Assembly: GCA_030647355.1 (NCBI GenBank)
Contig: JAUSIS010000013.1
Span: forward strand, 177,165 to 241,164
Source of the DNA: a bacterium
GTDB lineage: Bacteria; Patescibacteriota; UBA1384; VFKW01
DNA length: 64,000 nt
Direction: 5' to 3'
Of the stretch, positions 6,409-62,261 are shown one piece after another. The translations under genes and the position numbers were made by a program. The notes under the pieces are model-generated. The model was given only the letters and a program-made list of their open reading frames with translations, ran no database searches and was not told the DNA's origin. Positions within the stretch are counted from its first letter, which is position 1. Every line of letters begins with the position of its first letter.

Positions 6409-6582
6409 GTTGACCTCCGTTACAAATCCAAAATTCGAATTTCAAATATCAAATCAATACCCAAGCCCAAAATCCAAATCTTGACATTTAGCCATTTGGG
6501 CTTCATTTGGCATTGAAAATTGGAAATTTGACATTAAATCTCCCTCAGTACTTATCAGCTTAATTCTTACCAGCTTATTAGC

Positions 6583-8595
6583 TTATTTCACTATAAACCT
6601 GACAATCAGCAGCGCCACAATATTCAACACCTTAATCATCGGATTGATCGCCGGACCGGCTGTATCTTTGTAAGGATCGCCAACCGTATCGCCCGTAACC
6701 GCCGCTTTGTGCGCTTCCGAACCTTTTCCGCCCAAATTACCTTCTTCAATGTACTTCTTGGCATTATCCCAAGCCGCCCCGCCAGTTGTCATCGAAATCG
6801 CTACAAACAAACCTGTTATAATCGCTCCGACCAGCATTCCACCCAGCGCCTGCGCGCCCAAGCCGAATCCAACGATAAACGGTGCCGCAATCGGTAACAA
6901 TGCCGGAAAAATCATCTCTCTTTGCGCCGCGGCAGTCACGATATCCACACATCTTGAATAATCCGGCTTTACCTTGCCTTCCATTATCCCTTTTCTCTCC
7001 TTAAACTGACGACGCACTTCCTGTACTACCGCACCGGCCGCTTTCCCCACCGCTTCCATCGAAAGCGCCCCAAAGAAGTAGGGGAGTAGTCCCCCGATAA
7101 ATAACCCGATCAATACTTTCGGTTCTTCAATCGAGAAACTAATGTGCTTGCCCATGTCGGCAATTTCTTGCGTATATGCAGAAAACAAGACAATCGCCGC
7201 CAATCCCGCCGAGGCAATAGCATAGCCCTTGGTTACCGCTTTGGTCGTATTGCCCACAGCATCCAGTGGATCCGTCACAGCCCGCACCTTATCACCCATC
7301 TCGGCCATCTCGGCAATTCCTCCGGCATTATCAGTAATCGGACCATAAGCATCAATCGCCACAATAATTCCTGTCATGGATAACATAGCAAACGCCGCTA
7401 CTGCCACTCCATATAATTCAGCCAAATTGTATGAAACCAAAACCCCAGCGGCAATCAGAAGGACCGGCCAGAAAGTCGATCTCATAGATAATGCCAAACC
7501 GGCAATAATATTCGTTCCATGCCCCGTAACTGACGCTTCCGCCACTTTCTGAACAGGTCTGTTCTTGGTAGATGTGTAATATTCGGTAATAATCACCATT
7601 CCTGCCGTCACTACCACGCCAACCAACGAACAATAGAACAGATCCATAACTGTCACGCCTTTCAAACCCTTCATCATCCAGTTTGTGATAGGGTAGAAAG
7701 CCGCAATGGCAATAACCGCCGAAACAATCAAGCCTTTATACAACGCTTTCATAATGTCATTATCTTTACCCAACCTGACAAAGAATGTCCCGATAACCGA
7801 AGCCAAAACTGATACCCCGCCCAAAGCTAGAGGATAGAGAACTGCATTCTCATTGTTTTTAAATAGTAAATTACCCAGTAACATCGCCGCTACAGCCGTC
7901 ACCACATAAGTTTCGAACAGATCAGCCGCCATACCCGCGTCATCTCCGACGTTATCGCCTACGTTATCGGCAATAACTGCCGGATTTCTTGGATCATCTT
8001 CCGGAATTCCCGCTTCCAATTTACCGACCAAATCAGCGCCGACATCGGCTGCTTTAGTATAAATTCCGCCTCCCAATCGAGCAAAAATAGAAATAAGCGA
8101 GGCTCCGAATGCCAAACCAATCAAACTCTTAACATCATGCGTAACAGAATAAAAAACCGTCACGCCAAGTAATGCCAAACCCGCTACCAGTAAACCAGTT
8201 ACAGCACCTCCGCGAAATGCCAAAGTTAAAGCTTGTCCTAAACCCTGTCTGGCTTTCTCGGCTGTCCTGACATTAGCTCTAACTGCTACATTCATGCCAA
8301 TATAACCGGCTGCTGCCGATAAAATCGCTCCCACGGCAAAGCCCCAAGCTGTTGTCCAGCCCAGTTGTTTGACAAAACCAATAACTAAAAATAATACTAA
8401 AGCTACCATCGCTACCACGCGATATTGACGATTCAAATATGCCGAAGCGCCCTGCTGAATCGCTAGTGCGATTTCCTGCATTTTCTTGTTGCCAGCATCT
8501 TGTGATAAAACCCAGCGAATTAAATAAACACCATACAAAATGGTGATAATTGAGGCACCGACTGCCAAACGAACAGGTGTAAGCCACTCTGGCAT
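6583..8595 (-). CDS. hppA: Membrane-bound proton/sodium-translocating pyrophosphatase
   Basis: 670 aa polytopic protein with hallmark H+-PPase motifs ([39 protein letters not shown]). Confidence 0.93.
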
Positions 8596-8961
8596 ACTGC
8601 TCCTTTCTTAATAAATCCAAATGGCAAAATCCTAATTTCCCAATCAAAATCCAAATTTGTAAAAGTCAAAAATTTGAACTTGGGGTTTGAACTTAATTCG
8701 GCATTTGCCATTAGAAATTTGAAATTCTATTATTTCCCCTTAAATTTACCAAAATATCGCTCATCTGTCAAACGCCTTCAATTGTCATTGCGAGGCAATG
8801 CCGAAGCAATCTTTCCTCCTCCACCAACACATGCAATTGATTTTTCCCGTTTTTTAATATAAAATCAACCCAGCCAATAAGAGTAAGGATTAATCCTTGC
8901 CGCCTGAGATCCTGGGATTTATTCCAGGACCAAATCCAGGTCAATTTGGAGGATTCGTACC

Positions 8962-18560: not shown

Positions 18561-18664
18561 ACCTCCGTTGTTTTTTAGTAAAATCGCTGCGACTTTACTG
18601 AGCGGTTGACTTTCTCAAGATCGTCAAGTAAAATCCAAATAGAACATAAAAAATAAAATATATG

Positions 18665-18800
18665 TCTTATCAAGAGTGACGCTAGGGAATTGGCCCAGTG
18701 ATCGTCCAGCAACCTTAAATCTAGTAGCTTATATGCTTACTGCTTACCAGCTTACTAACTTATTCGGTGCTAAATCCAAGCCCCAGAGGCAAGATAATAC
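18665..18800 (+). promoter_or_regulatory. SAM-I (S-box) riboswitch in the metK leader
   Basis: tcttatcaagag / gctagggaattggcccagtgatcgtccagcaacc / ggtgctaaatcc / gataa match the SAM-I consensus P1-P2-P3 and P1 closing. The P3 loop carries a copy of the cttactgcttaccagcttac dispersed repeat. Confidence 0.75.
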
Positions 18801-18856: not shown

Positions 18857-20023
18857 ATGGAAAGAACACTTTTTACGTCTGAATCGGTTACAGAGGGACA
18901 CCCCGACAAAATGGCTGACCAAATTTCCGATGCGTTGCTTGATGCCCTTCTGGAAAAAGATGAAAAATCCAGGGTGGCAATCGAAACGCTTCTTACTAAT
19001 GGAGTCTGTATCATTGCCGGAGAAGTCACTACCAACGCCTATGTAGATATGGCAAAAATCGCCCGCAAAGTAATCAAGGAAATTGGTTACAATGGCTGCG
19101 GCTTCCATCATGAAACAAGCGGAGTCATGACAGCCATTAAAGAGCAATCTTCCGATATTGCCCAAGGTGTTGACAGCTATGTCAAAACTGAAAGCGGTAA
19201 GATCGTCAGAGAAGATCTCGAGCATCTGGGCGCCGGCGATCAAGGATTAATGTTCGGATACGCCTGCAATGAAACGCCCGAGCTGATGCCCCTGCCAATA
19301 ATTCTCGCTCAACGGCTATGTCAAAAATTAGCATCCGTACGTAAAAAAGGGACTATTACCGGCTTAAGACCAGACGGTAAATCGCAAGTTACCATCGAGT
19401 ACGTTGACGACAAACCAAGCAGAATCCACACTGTACTCATTGCCGCCCAGCACGACCCATATAAAGACATCAAAAAACTCCGCAAAGAAATAACCGATAA
19501 AGTCATTAATCCCGTGCTAAAATCTTATGGACATCGGATAGATTCAAAAACCAAGATTTATATCAACACAACCGGCAAATTTGTCATTGGCGGACCGGAA
19601 GGCGACACCGGCTTGACCGGCCGTAAAATCATCGTTGACACTTACGGCGGCTATGCTCGGCATGGCGGAGGCGCTTTCTCGGGCAAGGATCCGTCCAAAG
19701 TTGACCGCTCCGGCGCCTATGCCGCCAGATGGGTAGCCAAAAGCATCGTCGCTTCGGGATTAGCCGAAAAATGCGAGGTTCAATTGGCTTATGCTATAGG
19801 TAAACCGGAACCGCTTTCTATCTATGTTAATACTTTCCAAACTAGTAAAAAGACTGACGAAGAAATAATTAAAAAAATCTCTGACAACTTCGACTTAAGG
19901 CCTGGCATGATTATCAAAAACTTAGGACTAAGACGCCCGTTATACCGCCAGTGTGCCGCTTATGGCCACTTTGGTCGTCCGGAACTAAACCTCCCATGGG
20001 AAAAAGCTAAAAAAATTAGATAG
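18857..20023 (+). CDS. metK: S-adenosylmethionine synthetase
   Basis: 388 aa. [13 protein letters not shown] and [16 protein letters not shown] motifs. RBS aaaggag. Confidence 0.95.
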
Positions 20024-20150
20024 CTTAATTCTTACCGCTTATTGCTTACCAACTTACTCCCAGTCATTGCGAGGCCTCAGCCGTGGCAAACCCCCCATAT
20101 CCTTCGAGCCCGGTCGAGAAGCTCTTCTTAATTCTTACTGCTTATTTCAC
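20024..20150. repeat. Composite dispersed repeat (family A ends plus family B core)
   Basis: cttaattcttaccgcttattgcttacc at each end of a cagtcattgcgaggcctcagccgtggcaaa...gagcccggtcgagaagctcttc core. About 95% identical to the copy at 22040-22160. Confidence 0.6.
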
Positions 20151-21147: not shown

Positions 21148-21420
21148 ATGAATTATCAAAAATACACTTGGTATAATCGAAACGCAAAACTAGACAACCC
21201 CGAGACAATCCATCAAGTACTGTCATTTGGGAAAATTGATGAGATCAAGAAGATGGAACACATGCTTGGGTTAGAACAAATCACGCAAGTATATTTAAAA
21301 TATCCAAAAAATATTTATTCCCGACCGGTTTTCGCCTTTATCAACAAATATATTCTCAAAAACAAGGAGCCCATAGATGAGCGAAAATATCTCAAAAATA
21401 CATCTCGAAATCTTGAGTAA
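21148..21420 (+). CDS. Hypothetical small protein, possible antitoxin partner of the AbiEii-like gene
   Basis: 90 aa. Overlaps the downstream nucleotidyltransferase gene by 44 nt. No recognisable motif. Confidence 0.3.
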   Translation: MNYQKYTWYNRNAKLDNPETIHQVLSFGKIDEIKKMEHMLGLEQITQVYLKYPKNIYSRPVFAFINKYILKNKEPIDERKYLKNTSRNLE

Positions 21421-22039
21421 ACAGCAACAAGAAGTTCTGTTAAAACTCCAGCCGGTCCTAAAAGATTTCGTCCTCGGCGGCGGTACGGCGTTGGCGCTAC
21501 AGATCAAACATCGGCAATCTTTCGATTTCGATTTCTTTACTCTAAAACCAATTGATAAAAATCTACTGGAGAAAATTAGTCAACTCGGTTTTTCGTCAAC
21601 TGCGCCAATATTTGATAGCGTTGATGAATTAACTCTGATTATTGACAATGAAATCAAAATAACCTTTTTGTCTTATCCGTTTTCTAAAATATTTAATCTC
21701 GTTTTTCTAGATCAAAACATCCAAACATTCTCCCTCTCCGGCCTTGCAGCCCAAAAAGCTTATACAATCGGTAGGGGTGGAGTCTGGCGCGATTATTATG
21801 ATATTTTTACCTTACTTCGCCACAAATTTTTTACTCTAAAGGAAATCATCGGATTGACCCAGAAAAACTACGGTGACATTTTTAATCCCAAGCTGTTTTT
21901 GTCGCAGCTGGTCTATTTCGAGGACATTCAGGATTACTCCATTGAGCCAATCAATAATAGCTTAAACCCAATAGCTAGTAACGAAGTTAAAGCTTTTTTA
22001 GAAGAAGAAGTAGAAAAATATCTTGAAAGCATCAAATAG
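21377..22039 (+). CDS. AbiEii/AbiGii-family nucleotidyltransferase (type IV toxin-like, DUF1814)
   Basis: 220 aa. N-terminal FVLGGGTALALQIKHRQSFDFDFF matches the LKGGTAL...R.S.DIDF motif of AbiEii nucleotidyltransferases. Confidence 0.6.
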   Translation: MSENISKIHLEILSKQQQEVLLKLQPVLKDFVLGGGTALALQIKHRQSFDFDFFTLKPIDKNLLEKISQLGFSSTAPIFDSVDELTLIIDNEIKITFLSYPFSKIFNLVFLDQNIQTFSLSGLAAQKAYTIGRGGVWRDYYDIFTLLRHKFFTLKEIIGLTQKNYGDIFNPKLFLSQLVYFEDIQDYSIEPINNSLNPIASNEVKAFLEEEVEKYLESIK

Positions 22040-22160
22040 TCTTATTTCTTACCAGCTTACTCCCAGTCATTGCGAGGCCTCAGCCGTGGCAATCCCCCCC
22101 ATATTCTTCGAGCCCGGTCGAGAAGCTCTTCTTACTACTTACTAGCTTATTGCTTACTAG
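22040..22160. repeat. Composite dispersed repeat, second copy
   Basis: cagtcattgcgaggcctcagccgtggcaatccccccc...gagcccggtcgagaagctcttc flanked by cttaYttcttac...gcttattgcttac motifs. Confidence 0.6.
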
Positions 22161-22177: not shown

Positions 22178-23581
22178 ATGTCACTACCCGCCAAGTCAAA
22201 GGACTACAAAGTCGCCGACCTCTCGTTACACGAGTGGGGTCGAAAAGAAATTGAATCAGCCGAAAAAGAGATGCCAGGACTGATGGCTCTCCGCCAAGAA
22301 TATGGCTCCCAAAAGCCCCTGAAGAGCGCTAGGATAGCCGGTTGCCTGCATATGACTATTCAGACTGCTGTTTTAATTGAAACCCTCTTAGAGCTCGGCG
22401 CAGAAGTTCGCTGGTCCAGTTGCAATATCTTCTCCACTCAAGACCATGCTGCTGCTGCCATTGCCAAAAAAGATATACCTGTTTTTGCCTGGAAAGGTGA
22501 AACAGAAGAAGATTATTGGTGGTGCATCGAGCAAACCCTAAAATTCCCAACCAACCCCTCCGTCATTGCGAGGAACTCCTCTTCCGTCATTGCAAAAGCC
22601 TTTAGCCCCGGACTCGATCCGGGGGAAGAGAAGCAATCTTCCCAAGGTCCCAACATGATCCTCGACGACGGCGGAGACTTAACACTGCTCGTTCACGAAA
22701 AACACCCTGAACTTCTCAAGGACATCATCGGCGTCTCCGAAGAAACAACTACCGGAGTTCACCGGCTTTATCAGATGATGGAAGCGAAAACTTTGAAAAT
22801 GGCCGCCATAAATGTGAATGATTCGGTCACCAAATCAAAATTTGACAATAAATACGGCTGCCGCGAATCTCTCGCCGATGGCATCAAACGCGCAACCGAT
22901 ATCATGATTGCCGGAAAAGTAGTTGTTATCGCCGGTTATGGCGATGTCGGCAAAGGCTGTGCCCAGAGCATGCGCGGCTACGGCGCCCGAGTTATTATCA
23001 CAGAAATCGATCCGATAATTGCCCTGCAAGCAGCCATGGAAGGCTTTGAAGTTCTCACGATGGATCAAGCCGCCGAGATAGGGGACATATTTGTCACCGC
23101 CACGGGCTGCTGTGATGTTATAACTGGTAAGGATTTGGGAAAGATGAAAGACGGCGCAATAGTCTGCAACATCGGACATTTTGATAGCGAAATAGATGTC
23201 AAATGGCTGGAAGATCAAAAAGACATCAAGGAAGAAAACATAAAACCCCAAGTTGATCGGTTTATTTGGCCAAACGACAAATCAATTACCTTACTCTCCC
23301 GCGGCCGTCTCGTCAATTTAGGCAATGCCCACGGCCATCCCAGCTTCGTCATGAGCACCTCCTTCACCAATCAAACGCTCGCCCAGATCGCCCTCTACAC
23401 CGAGAGCAGAAAATACGAAAAAGGAAAAGTTTACACTCTTCCCAAAGAATTAGATGAAAAAGTCGCCCGCCTCCACCTCGACAAGCTCGGCGTCAAATTA
23501 ACTAAGCTTACTAAAAAACAAGCCGACTACCTAGGCATCCCCCAAGACGGCCCTTTCAAACCCGATTCCTATCGTTATTAG
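22178..23581 (+). CDS. ahcY: Adenosylhomocysteinase with a 33-aa in-frame repeat insertion
   Basis: Start at [26 protein letters not shown] (the ORF-track start at 22070 reads through the upstream repeat). NAD-binding [11 protein letters not shown]-terminus ...KPDSYRY. Insertion [33 protein letters not shown] between the conserved LKF and [10 protein letters not shown]. Confidence 0.92.
22550..22648 (+). repeat. Family-B palindromic repeat inserted in-frame inside ahcY
   Basis: 99 nt: two gtcattgc half-sites, palindrome ccccggactcgatccgggg and gaagagaagcaatc. Related to the intergenic gtcattgcgagg...gaagcaatc copies. Length is a multiple of 3 with no stop. Confidence 0.6.
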
Positions 23582-23616
23582 CTTAATTCTTACCGCTTAC
23601 GAGCTTATTGCTTATA

Positions 23617-23650
23617 TTTGCCCCTACAAACCCGACTCCTACCACTATTA
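23617..23650 (+). pseudogene. Short remnant copy of the ahcY terminal codons
   Basis: gcccctacaaacccgactcctaccactattaa versus the genuine 3' end ggccctttcaaacccgattcctatcgttattag (about 80% identity), 36 nt after the real stop and separated from it by a family-A repeat. Confidence 0.4.
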
Positions 23651-23737
23651 ACAATTGTTACTTGGGAATGAATTCCCCTCAATCCTTACTAGCGGCCTAT
23701 AGCCAAGACCACTGAAAAACTTACCCCATAGTAGTCA

Positions 23738-23835
23738 TTGCGAGCAAGGCGAAGCAATCTCTAAACAAGGAACTGATTGCCACGGCCATTAAAAACGGCC
23801 TCGCAATGACAATCTAGAATGTTTTTCAGCGATCC
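23738..23835. repeat. Family-B palindromic repeat plus gtttttcagcgatc arm
   Basis: gtcattgcgagcaaggcgaagcaatc ... ggcctcgcaatgac inverted pair, then gtttttcagcgatc, which is inverted relative to gatcgctgaaaaac at 25167-25181 on the other side of the AAA-ATPase gene. Confidence 0.55.
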
Positions 23836-25066: not shown

Positions 25067-25330
25067 TTAGCCTCGCCTCATTTATCATTCTGAATCTTCT
25101 CCCCCATCATTCTAACCCGTCATATCTTGTCATTCTGAACTGTCAAGTGAAGAAGCGAGATCGCTGAAAAACCTCCTTCGTCATTCCAAAACCGGGTGGC
25201 ACCCAATATTTGGAATCCAGATATGAGGTTAATAGATTCCGGATCCGCCTTGGCTCGAAAGACAGGTCTGGGATCCCATTCCTGAATCAAGTTCAGGACA
25301 GACTCCGACCGGAATGACGATTTTAAAGGC
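25060..25330. repeat. Cluster of gtcattctgaa / cgtcattcc repeat words with a long imperfect palindrome
   Basis: gtcattctgaa (x2), cgtcattccaaaacc ... ggaatgacg inverted about 140 bp apart, and gatcgctgaaaaac. A variant of the family-B gtcattgcgag repeat. Confidence 0.5.
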
Positions 25331-26076: not shown

Positions 26077-26289
26077 AAGATTACATGGGATTTATCAGCT
26101 AATTAGCTTATCCCACCTGCAGAACCCCGCTAAAGGCGGTAGCCACTTATTAGCTTACAAGCTTATTGCATATTAATATTATCGTTCGAGGCCAGGCCGA
26201 GAACTTAACCTTTTAGTTCTCGATTCTCTTCGATCTCTCGAACAATATTCTATTCTTAATCCTTACAATCTTACCAGCTTATCGCTTGC

Positions 26290-26408
26290 CGGCTCGTAAT
26301 CATCTCGACAAACTCGGCGTCAAGCTAACAAAATTAACCAATAAACAAGCCGACTACCTCGGCCTCCCCGTAGGTGGCCCATATAAAAGTGATAATTACC
26401 GATACTAG
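26290..26408 (+). pseudogene. Displaced copy of the ahcY 3' end, about 2.7 kb downstream of the intact gene
   Basis: Translates to [35 protein letters not shown], against the genuine AhcY C-terminus [35 protein letters not shown]. About 75% nucleotide identity. No upstream ahcY body. Confidence 0.65.
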
Positions 26409-58133: not shown

Positions 58134-58277
58134 ATTTTCCTTTCTGACTCAAATTTTCTTTACTTCGAGTTTGCATAGCCCTTCCTCATCATTGCGAGCG
58201 TAATGTGGCAATCTTTCCCTTTCCCAACTTACTTCTTACTGCTTATTGCTTAATTCTTACTAACTTGCCGGCCTTTC

Positions 58278-60888: not shown

Positions 60889-60975
60889 CGGTGAGGGTGG
60901 GATTCGAACCCACGGAGCCCTTACGAGCTCAACATCTTAGCAGGATGCTGCCTTCAACCTCTCGGCCACCTCACC
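60889..60975 (-). tRNA. tRNA-Ser (anticodon GCU), class II with long variable arm
   Basis: Reverse complement GGTGAGGTGGCCGAGAGGTTGAAGGCAGCATCCTGCTAAGATGTTGAGCTCGTAAGGGCTCCGTGGGTTCGAATCCCACCCTCACCG. Anticodon loop CT-GCT-AA, GTTCGAATC T-loop. No encoded CCA. Confidence 0.85.
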
Positions 60976-61980
60976 ATATGAATCCAAATACTTCTTAATA
61001 TGTTTAGGATTGTGACTTCCTATTTCTTGAAAATATTTTCTAACATCCTTGGTATCATACAATCTTAAATCTCCACGACAATCTACCTTAGGATGAATAC
61101 CAATCTGCTCTAAAATTATCTTGACCGATTCTATCAAATTCACTGACCGTGAGCTAAATCCTATTTTATAATAAATGTATTGCTTACCTCTCACGGAATA
61201 TCTATGCTTGTACACACATCCATCTGTATCAACCAACCCCCTAACACAAGCTAACGAATATTTCATATCCTTCTTGATCCATTCCGGAATATCAATTTGA
61301 TGTTTAACCTTATTACCCTTAACCAATCCATTCTTTAATAAATACGCTACTAAATTTTTTCTAGAAACCTGAATATTTACTACGGAATTTCGAATTATTT
61401 CGCTGGGCTGAATTCTAAAAAGTTTTATCATCAATTGACAAACATATTTTGCATATTCCCGATCGTCAACCCGATTTAAAGTGATTGTAACCTGATAATC
61501 TGTAATTCCACCATCACCAATCAGTATCCCAAACATTTCTGCTAAATTCACACTTTTTTTGGGGAACAAGACTATTTTTGGACAGCTTATGCTATTTGTC
61601 GAAAAACGCCCTTTGGTTAGCCACCATTCCTCCCACCCTTTTCTCCTTTTCTCCGGATCAGTACAAATTGTTCCATATTTTCTGATTGTTGTCTCTGCAC
61701 CTAATCGGGCAGCTTTTTTTGTTGACCAAAAAGCCGGACGAATTTCAACATCATCTGGTATTTTTATTCCCATATGGCTAACCAACTTATCAACCGCCTT
61801 CTCCGTCATCGAAAAACGCTCCCTCTTCCAATCTGTCAAAGTCCGAACTCCAACTTCGCAGAATACAGACAATTCTAAATTTGACCCAAACACACCCATT
61901 GCTCTGTTTAAAAACTCTGCCTGCTTCCCCTTTAGGAATAACACGCGATTAGAATAATCTTTTTTAATCAATTCCGCCAT
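60937..61980 (-). CDS. LAGLIDADG-family homing endonuclease (double-motif)
   Basis: 347 aa. Two LAGLIDADG motifs (FGILIGDGG and VRGLVDTDGCV). The 3' end overlaps the 5' half of tRNA-Ser(GCU) by 39 nt. Confidence 0.8.
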   Translation of the reverse strand: MAELIKKDYSNRVLFLKGKQAEFLNRAMGVFGSNLELSVFCEVGVRTLTDWKRERFSMTEKAVDKLVSHMGIKIPDDVEIRPAFWSTKKAARLGAETTIRKYGTICTDPEKRRKGWEEWWLTKGRFSTNSISCPKIVLFPKKSVNLAEMFGILIGDGGITDYQVTITLNRVDDREYAKYVCQLMIKLFRIQPSEIIRNSVVNIQVSRKNLVAYLLKNGLVKGNKVKHQIDIPEWIKKDMKYSLACVRGLVDTDGCVYKHRYSVRGKQYIYYKIGFSSRSVNLIESVKIILEQIGIHPKVDCRGDLRLYDTKDVRKYFQEIGSHNPKHIKKYLDSYGEVAERLKAASC

Positions 61981-62171: not shown

Positions 62172-62261
62172 TGGCGGAGAGTGCAGGATTCGAACCTGCG
62201 AGAGTCTCTCGACCCTTCTGGTTTTCAAGACCAGCGCCATCAACCACTCGGCCAACTCTCC
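62172..62261 (-). tRNA. tRNA-Ser (anticodon UGA), class II, CCA encoded
   Basis: Reverse complement GGAGAGTTGGCCGAGTGGTTGATGGCGCTGGTCTTGAAAACCAGAAGGGTCGAGAGACTCTCGCAGGTTCGAATCCTGCACTCTCCGCCA. Anticodon loop CT-TGA-AA. Confidence 0.85.

Follow-up and report, generated by a model that had tools for sequence, protein, structure and literature searches.

This study concerns the adenosylhomocysteinase gene ahcY of a bacterium of the Patescibacteriota, located at positions 22178-23581 (forward strand) of a 64,000-nucleotide stretch of contig JAUSIS010000013.1 that we call the window, and a 78-nt segment inside this gene, at 22562-22639, that is very probably a copy of a dispersed hairpin repeat. 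The coding sequence is intact and specifies 467 residues followed by a stop codon. Its product is a full-length AhcY by Pfam (AdoHcyase, E 1.9e-135; AdoHcyase_NAD, E 4.8e-79), matches rat and human SAHH with E ~1e-198 and is 100% identical to the record "MAG: adenosylhomocysteinase [bacterium]" (MAG, metagenome-assembled genome), the following matches being named Patescibacteria or Magasanikbacteria. The best solved relative found with HMMER is rat SAHH 1b3r (E 7e-199), and this match is broken in two at the insert: residues 9-127 and 157-467 of the query are aligned, and the segment between them is not. The remainder of the protein is conserved, with 89% identity to the sister orthologue P0002, and DDGGD and SEETTTG are among the motifs invariant in that alignment.

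The unaligned segment belongs to an expanded loop (22547-22648, forward strand; residues P124-G157) that lies between the helix of residues 110-120 and the NMILDDGGD strand, as delimited by the spacer lengths of homologues and by an AlphaFold2 model. Thirty-four residues separate F123 from P158; among the 112 sequences that could be scored out of the 120 best AhcY homologues, the same spacer counts five residues in 91, four in 11 and 12-35 in 8. An earlier note, made from the letters of this DNA, had proposed that an element like the Rickettsia palindromic elements (RPEs) is inserted here as 99 nt encoding 33 extra residues, at a place where AhcY proteins usually have three or four. The extra segment is indeed there, but the usual spacer is four to five residues, the net excess is ~29 residues and the core element measures 78 nt; the reading frame is preserved and no stop codon is introduced, just as the note had stated. 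In the AlphaFold2 model (25-sequence alignment; mean predicted local distance difference test score, pLDDT, 73), residues 127-153 form a coil with pLDDT <50 between helix 110-120 and strand 160-163. Because the prediction is of low confidence and coil, and because the length of this site varies in nature, it seems reasonable to suppose that the loop bearing the insert is exposed at the surface.

Architecture of the insert and copies of the repeat in the window

The core element runs from GTCATTGCGAGG to GAAGCAATCT (22562-22639, forward strand; 26 codons) inside a pyrimidine-rich flank, its limits being set by pattern matches and by the junction at a sister locus described below. In the whole window the pattern GTCATTGCGAG-N40-70-GAAGCAATC matches nowhere but in the insert (22562-22638), where 0.00 matches were expected. 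Two units follow one another on the forward strand. The first (22562-22585) is a truncated 5' half unit made of GTCATTGCGAGG and a CT-rich spacer, AACTCCTCTTCC, and is accompanied by an 11-nt direct repeat, TCCGTCATTGC, which stands at 22559 and 22583 with a period of 24. The second (22586-22639) is a complete long-form unit, GTCATTGC...GAAGCAATCT, whose inner hairpin (22606-22624) joins CCCCGGA and TCCGGGG over 7 bp around the loop CTCGA. A C stands before each of the two units and completes a cGTC tag (22561-22564 and 22585-22588), the stem opens with ATTGC and closes with GCAAT, and the 7-bp central hairpin alone is a robust fold, the only stem retained in both the DNA and the RNA centroid structures. 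The copy is degenerate, with a truncated half unit and with GAAGA where the consensus of the family has GAC. An intein or an intron was considered and ruled out by the 78-nt size and by the Rfam scan of the window, which found only two tRNAs and an S-adenosylmethionine (SAM) riboswitch and nothing at the insert; the insert peptide matched none of the RPE models of NCBIfam at E up to 10.

The words that bound the insert recur in intergenic DNA of the window. GTCATTGCGAG(G) occurs exactly six times, and GTCATTGCGAG with at most one mismatch gives 8 matches against 0.7 expected, a number reached by none of 100 shuffled sequences, while the short-form pattern TCATTGCGAG-N5-30-GCAAWC finds six intergenic copies against 0.00 expected. 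The 12-mer GTCATTGCGAGG at the start of the insert is identical in four of these six, and its end, GAAGCAATCT(T), is found again where two of the copies (8784 and 23734) terminate on their 3' side; the similarity to intergenic copies on which the idea of an insertion depended is thus significant. As located by word and pattern scans, the copies comprise a short one, GTCATTGCGAGGCAATGCCGAAGCAATCT, that has both end words in common with the insert (8784-8812), one between metK and pfkB that belongs to family D5 (20063-20091), one lying 84 nt 5' of the ahcY start codon (22066-22094) and one with a variant tag, ATCATTGCGAG...GGCAATC (58188-58213), all on the forward strand, together with an inverted pair just 3' of ahcY (23734-23810, made of 23734-23759 forward and 23775-23810 reverse). 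Their tags read t/a/aGTC, with one ATC variant, and the tails of the window copies read C-TTTCC or C-TTCCC. Of the six element loci, four fall within 3.75 kb around ahcY, namely the insert, the copy 5' of the gene and the pair 3' of it, with p ~0.01 under a uniform model. Candidates for further intragenic copies at 310, 432 and 52527 were rejected as lone words in ordinary coding sequence, devoid of the 3' word. A general hairpin scan for GTCAT with a complementary 7-mer was unspecific, with 11 matches in the window against 4.6 in shuffled sequences.

Other repeats share this DNA. A second cluster of CGTC-type hairpins occupies 25100-25320, with CGTCATTCCAAAACC...TTTGGAATCCAG at 25180-25217 (forward), a long GTCATTCCGG...CCGGAATC unit at 25235-25318 (reverse) and words of the GTCATTCTGAAC type, so that the repeats of the window make up a mosaic of several CGTC-type subfamilies. 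A small palindrome, CTTCGAGCCCGGTCGAGAAG, stands at 20102-20121 and 22106-22125, at equal distance after the copies at 20063 and 22066, and the two 100-nt intergenic blocks that contain it are 94-95% identical (families D5 and D11). Finally, CTTA-rich runs with a period of ~7 nt (e.g. CTTACTGCTTATTGCTTA) adjoin gene ends and hairpin repeats at 6551-6587, 18728-18764, 20024-20062, 22129-22156, 23582-23614, 26247-26283 and 58228-58252, and are also present in the intergenic regions of the sister genome at locus L001.

Orthologous loops and the repeat family across genomes

The closest relative of the window AhcY, the sister orthologue P0002 (82% identical), is encoded at locus L001, which is syntenic with the window (metK, pfkB, ahcY and an AAA_14/DUF4143 ATPase). 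Its loop has 26 residues of unrelated sequence, lacks the 78 nt and contains ACT CCC TCC TCC CAA. Excision of 22562-22639 from the window gene gives ACC AAC CCC TCC/TCC CAA GGT, the slash marking the cut, and CCC TCC TCC CAA is uninterrupted in L001; the cut coincides exactly with the ends of the repeat as defined by the intergenic copies. The alignment of orthologues, which the earlier note had recommended for confirming the insertion boundaries, returned related AhcY proteins without the same 33-residue segment, so that the ancestral loop named by the note as a ground for refutation does not apply. The loops of L001 and L002 share a 25-nt stretch, TCTACTCC...CTCCCAACTCC (p ~3e-4), and because this stretch is homologous, some of the loop extension appears to predate the element; this older extension may itself descend from earlier copies of the repeat. 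An out-of-frame likeness between the interior of the insert and the L001 loop (14 nt, p ~0.07) was weak and was set aside.

In a neighbour-joining tree of 120 AhcY homologues, computed with the loops excluded and without bootstrap, inserts in this loop (loop 1) are found in P0001 together with P0002, in P0011, P0004, P0099, P0073, P0081 and P0113, each nested among insert-free relatives. Inserts in loop 1 thus occur in at least six further lineages of the candidate phyla radiation (CPR), and they are of the hairpin kind in the three examined as DNA, P0011, P0004 and P0081. In P0011 (L002) the loop carries CGTCATTCCGGGCTTGACCCGGAATCCAG, a CGTC element of another subfamily. That of P0004 (L004) carries TGTCATTCCCGCGAAGGCGGGAATCCAT with an inverted partner ending in GAGGATGAC; this insert fits the published search string for Ssn-related motifs (SRM) and is one base away from the NTS of Neisseria, and between its peptide and the RPE4 model there is a weak match (E 0.16; 12 bits, the cutoff being 24). 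The loop of P0081 (L005) contains a different GC-rich hairpin, CCCCCGTAGCTCCGAAGGAGCGAAGGTGGGG, a module that is also nested inside long GTCATTGCGAGG forms. In L002 the intragenic and flanking copies are all of GTCATTCC types and in the window they are all of the GTCATTGCGAG type, and this match between the intragenic subfamily and its neighbours fits a genome-specific, probably short-range, mode of copying. Since the loop inserts are not homologous, a MAFFT alignment of the four expanded loops was uninformative.

A second hot spot for insertions was noticed in the loop that follows PQVDKFIW (window residues ~364-368). It is expanded to 12-18 residues, against the usual 5-7, in 9 of the 120 homologues, which are scattered over the tree, with sequences e.g. 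of the PARHASQGDAGG and SSAKASDGK types; the sole expanded second loop examined as DNA (L006, 5221-5286) resembles by eye an imperfect GC-rich hairpin. By this comparison, two loops of AhcY are recurrent sites of landing or of tolerance.

The repeat reaches far beyond this lineage. A scan for GTCATTGCGAGG-N4-30-GAAGCAATC in one genome per species returned at least 120 loci, and the matches listed come from more than 15 phyla, the core of the subfamily being almost the same throughout. The listed hosts include Bradyrhizobium and other Alphaproteobacteria, Gamma- and Deltaproteobacteria, Bacteroidota, Chloroflexota, Planctomycetota, Zixibacteria, Omnitrophota, Armatimonadota, Gemmatimonadota, Bacillota, Helicobacter, a Rickettsiales MAG, "Candidatus Tisiphia" and, within the Patescibacteria, Doudna-, Berkel- and Curtissbacteria. 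Over 132 copies the consensus is cGTCATTGCGAGG-A-(GC GAA GC)-GAC-GAAGCAATC-cag, where the inner hairpin in parentheses varies from 2 to ~10 bp, with the tag c/tGTCATT and the tail ...GCAATC-CAG; the form of the subfamily can thus be written as cGTCATTGCGAGG, a variable inner hairpin and GACGAAGCAATCcag. The long unit of the insert, CCCCGGACTCGATCCGGGG-GAAGA-GAAGCAATC, resembles long forms with CCCC...GGGG found elsewhere, such as ACCCCGATGTCACATCGGGGGAC in L044, ACCCCGAGCTTGTCGAGGGGGAC in the Patescibacteria genome of L068 and that of L131. Likewise, the succession of a half unit, a CT-rich spacer (period 20-25 nt) and a complete unit recurs among the listed metagenome copies: L131 reads GTCATTGCGAGG-AGAGGGATTCCTCTCCC-GTCATTGCGAG-CCCCAATAGAGTCGGGGG-CGAAGCAATC, and the same layout is seen in L182, L222, L212, L146, L164 and L241.

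Five of the six frames of the consensus are free of stops (RHCEERSDEAIQ, VIARSEATKQS, SLRGAKRRSNP, LDCFVASLLAMT and GLLRRFAPRND), and ~5% of the 132 genome copies lie inside real genes. Genes in which Pfam confirms that the repeat sits within a domain are those for an ATP-dependent DNA ligase (Curtissbacteria, L084), the GMP synthase GuaA (L047), KsgA/RsmA (Patescibacteria, L091) and a PfkB kinase (Omnitrophota, L100). It is worth adding that the same GTCATTGCGAGG...GAAGCAATC subfamily is present in Rickettsiales, at L111 (a Candidatus Tisiphia endosymbiont, Rickettsiaceae), where three copies lie in 8 kb, and at L041 (the Rickettsiales MAG), which ties the window repeat directly to the lineage in which RPEs were first described.

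Seven repeat-bearing loci, which had been selected solely for containing the repeat, also carry an open reading frame (ORF) of ~96-105 residues for a GIY-YIG protein. Six of these genes (L039, L099, L139, L161, L196 and L219) are bracketed by inverted copies of the GTCATTGCGAGG subfamily, from which the start and stop codons are a few to ~40 nt away, and the seventh (L201) is bracketed by copies of the GTCATTCCGGGG type. The assignment is given by Pfam (GIY-YIG, E 6e-18 for L039 and 3e-15 for L099), and the nearest solved relative is a single-domain protein of UPF0213.

Other features around ahcY

Two partial repetitions of the 3' end of ahcY follow the gene. The first, a 31-nt relic, lies directly after the stop (23620-23650; score 32, reached by none of 1000 shuffles); the second, of ~110 nt (26286-26408), is 74% identical to 23474-23582 and is still readable as protein. 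In the 2.7 kb between them lie copies of the repeat, a gene for an AAA_14/DUF4143-like ATPase and a pair of small ORFs that by eye is putatively HicA/HicB-like. The arrangement suggests that the 3' end of ahcY has been the target of integration more than once; just past its own ahcY stop, L001 reads GPFKPNSYRY and a stop. Upstream, a SAM riboswitch (Rfam RF00162, 50.4 bits; 18664-18800) precedes the ORF 18857-20023, putatively metK to judge from its position and the synteny with L001. It stands at the head of a methyl-cycle cluster, metK-pfkB-ahcY, which L001 and L006 have conserved. Two ORFs of 90 and 220 residues between pfkB and ahcY (21148-22039) are absent from the syntenic L001 and would for that reason represent a lineage-specific insertion, beside the repeat copy at 22066. 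At a distance from the gene, a 347-residue ORF with a weak LAGLIDADG_3 match (60937-61980, reverse strand) lies between two 87-nt tRNA genes (60889-60975 and 62175-62261) and overlaps the first by ~39 nt; an identical protein is encoded on a contig from run SRR13727527.

Interpretation and comparison with known systems

Taken together, these data make it very probable that 22562-22639 is a hairpin copy of the class formed by CGTC-tagged repetitive extragenic palindromes (REPs) and Ssn-related motifs, lodged as a selfish or neutral passenger in a loop of AhcY. The central proposal of the earlier note, an RPE-like element in the frame of AhcY, is in this sense borne out, as a copy of a dispersed hairpin repeat in a variable loop that is predicted to be disordered. 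It is tempting to propose that the element reached this loop of the substrate-binding domain, which joins helix 110-120 to the NMILDDGGD strand, by landing there or by being copied into it, and that it is transcribed and translated with ahcY, adding ~26-29 residues of probably disordered and solvent-exposed loop. It would then be a passive, translated passenger of a permissive loop and not a functional module of the enzyme, and its persistence would owe to a family that is open in five of six frames, to a copy length that is a multiple of three and to a loop that tolerates insertions. The source of the insert was probably the copies that flank ahcY. As GIY-YIG genes are flanked by the repeat and Ssn nucleases are specific for single strands, the family may spread by way of hairpins in single-stranded DNA, on which a GIY-YIG nuclease of the Ssn type, with its gene in another part of the genome, would act; the half units in tandem would be explained if a cut near the tag were followed by a new round of copying.

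Several points weigh against this scenario. The L001 junction is a proxy for the empty site and not an allele of the window gene, the loop of L001 is itself expanded and of low complexity, and the restored junction of 12 nt could owe something to composition. Folded as a 93-nt segment, the whole insert is not more stable than shuffled sequences (z -1.0 as DNA, -0.56 as RNA), and with so weak an overall fold it may be an old, decaying copy. The word palindromic, which the earlier note applied to the insert, accordingly holds for the 7-bp central hairpin and describes the design of the family more than the insert as a whole. When the insert was aligned locally with the window and with the intergenic copies one by one, its interior, CCCCGGA/TCCGGGG hairpin included, had no counterpart in the window; of the intergenic-repeat words that the note had read in the insert, those at the ends are genuine and the hairpin arms are absent from the window copies. 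Two motif scans of the six frames found no GIY-YIG gene in the 64-kb window. On the side of the protein, the mean pLDDT of the model is just 73, translation of the insert is presumed, and the enzyme carrying it is a predicted adenosylhomocysteinase.

Other explanations deserve to be weighed against that of a passenger repeat copy. An unlikely one is that the intragenic copy is kept for a role at the level of DNA or RNA, either as an Ssn-type nuclease site that limits recombination or transformation across metK-pfkB-ahcY, in the way of NTS around selected genes of Neisseria, or as a hairpin of the mRNA that affects stability or translation. The clustering of elements at ahcY would agree with it, as would the relics of past rearrangements at the 3' end of the gene and the precedent of NTS, which cluster around particular genes and whose cutting by SsnA lowers transformation by NTS-containing DNA (PMC11893778). 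The clustering is modest, however, and short-range copying explains it equally well; the copy is degenerate (truncated half unit, GAAGA for GAC, weak overall fold); unrelated hairpins at the same site in other lineages fit tolerance better than a specific function; and the nuclease gene it calls for was not found within the window. To a related conjecture we would give an equally small chance, namely that CGTC/SRM repeats are repeatedly directed to the same two AhcY loops across the CPR, or that the insert is kept as a working Ssn-type nuclease target through which the methyl-cycle locus has its recombination or its gene transfer controlled. If true, copies in coding sequences would be functional parts of a system of genome dynamics in reduced genomes.

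Still less credible is a lineage-specific extension of the loop by slippage or duplication inside ahcY, kept for a role in the protein, with the likeness to the repeat as a secondary matter. The closest relatives P0002 and P0011 are also long-looped and share a homologous stretch, and 11 nt are directly repeated within the insert, both of which such an origin would accommodate. Slippage would nonetheless not be expected to yield the exact 12-mer and the 10-11-mer end words of a cross-phylum family in the right order and orientation (0.00 expected); the sister L001 lacks the 78 nt, the insert peptide is predicted to be disordered and the same repeat is translated in other frames within unrelated proteins. 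Least plausible of all is a misthreading of repeat-containing reads into ahcY, conceivable for a metagenome-assembled source and a multi-copy repeat that recurs 470 nt before and 1.1 kb after the insert, but at odds with the unique interior and intact frame of the insert, with the unique ahcY sequence on both sides of it in a 241,868-bp contig and with analogous inserts in the same loop from independent assemblies of other samples.

Among known systems, the nearest are the CGTC-tagged REPs, which have a terminal CGTC (TGTC/CCTC) tag, a stem of 8-9 bp starting with AT, a loop of 4-5 nt and a CCA-like tail, and whose intragenic copies encode 20-30 residues, no dedicated transposase having been found (Di Nocera 2013, PMC3733652). 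The window repeat has the CGTC tag, the AT start of the stem, the short tail, the intergenic dispersal and an inverted pair (23734-23810), and a minority of the GTCATTGCGAGG subfamily lies in-frame inside conserved genes. It departs from the contiguous stem and short loop of these REPs in having a stem of 5 bp that an internal loop separates from an inner hairpin of variable size (2-10 bp); CGTC-1 variants of Bradyrhizobium also have other loops (PMC3733652). The host is a member of the CPR/Patescibacteria and so stands outside the five phyla in which CGTC repeats were surveyed in 2013 (PMC3733652).

The dRS3 repeat of Neisseria, which is CGTC-1, has been extended to an oriented NTS, CGTCATTCCCGCGMAVGCGGGAATCYRG, and to degenerate SRM, whose single-stranded hairpin is cut by small GIY-YIG proteins (Ssn), the ssn genes being typically flanked by the motif (Chenal 2025, PMC11893778). 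The consensus cGTCATT...AATCcag parallels the NTS, CGTCATT...AATCYRG (CGTCATTCCCGCGMAVGCGGGAATCYRG), the inverted copies of the GTCATTGCGAGG subfamily around small GIY-YIG genes (Pfam) in six loci of other genomes recall the arrangement NTS-ssnA-NTS, and in the L004 orthologue this loop of AhcY bears an NTS that is nearly perfect. NTS are rare inside genes (2% in N. meningitidis; PMC11893778). Unlike published SRM, the GTCATTGCGAGG subfamily misses the search string HGTCWYN(0-2)YYVSBRHN(0-5)WNVSBRGN(0-2)RNCYNB, which has no match in the window and, among the first loci, matches the L004 insert only.

The likeness to RPEs appears to be more than an analogy, because RPE-4 and RPE-6 have been placed in the CGTC superfamily (as CGTC-4 and, with dRS3, CGTC-1; PMC3733652), whose layout the window repeat has. 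Like the RPE families, it enters conserved genes in-frame and without stops; unlike the named ones, its peptide has no match to an RPE domain model. RPE-1, which is Rickettsia-specific and ~100-150 bp long, encodes a peptide domain that can be recognised (NCBIfam TIGR01045). It was reportedly found by Ogata et al. in 2000 in-frame in many unrelated genes, which were not destroyed, and is said to have been modelled as surface-exposed. The window insert differs in coming from a cross-phylum family and in having no match of the TIGR01045 type; RPE-1 has also been called "longer palindromic insertions" (PMC3733652). The GTAG REPs and REPINs resemble our repeat in being short palindromes outside genes, frequently paired in inverted orientation; they lie on either side of the gene for the protein presumed to act on them and probably act as single-stranded hairpins. 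They differ in their GTAG tag and in their partner, a RAYT, the IS200/IS605-like tyrosine transposase that mobilises them.

In-frame insertions of REPs are already known (PMC3733652 and the RPE literature), and the window insert is a further example of this phenomenon; no new kind of system is revealed. In a literature only incompletely covered, we found no report of in-frame REP insertions in CPR genomes, none linking the GTCATTGCGAGG subfamily to GIY-YIG genes and no match to the translated peptides of the repeat. The family may nevertheless mislead, since it can give rise to spurious peptides such as VIARSEATKQS, SLRGAKRRSNP, HCEERSDEAIQ and DCFVASLLAMT, and annotators and structure modellers should be warned that loop inserts of this kind are repeat-derived; by the same token they are natural markers of permissive sites in AhcY. 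What the comparison adds is a very widespread, unnamed repeat, cGTCATTGCGAGG...GAAGCAATCcag, tied to small GIY-YIG genes in an Ssn-type layout, and an in-frame decoration of essential enzymes by CGTC hairpins that, seen earlier with RPE-4 and RPE-6 of Rickettsia and in few other bacteria, very probably extends to the CPR.

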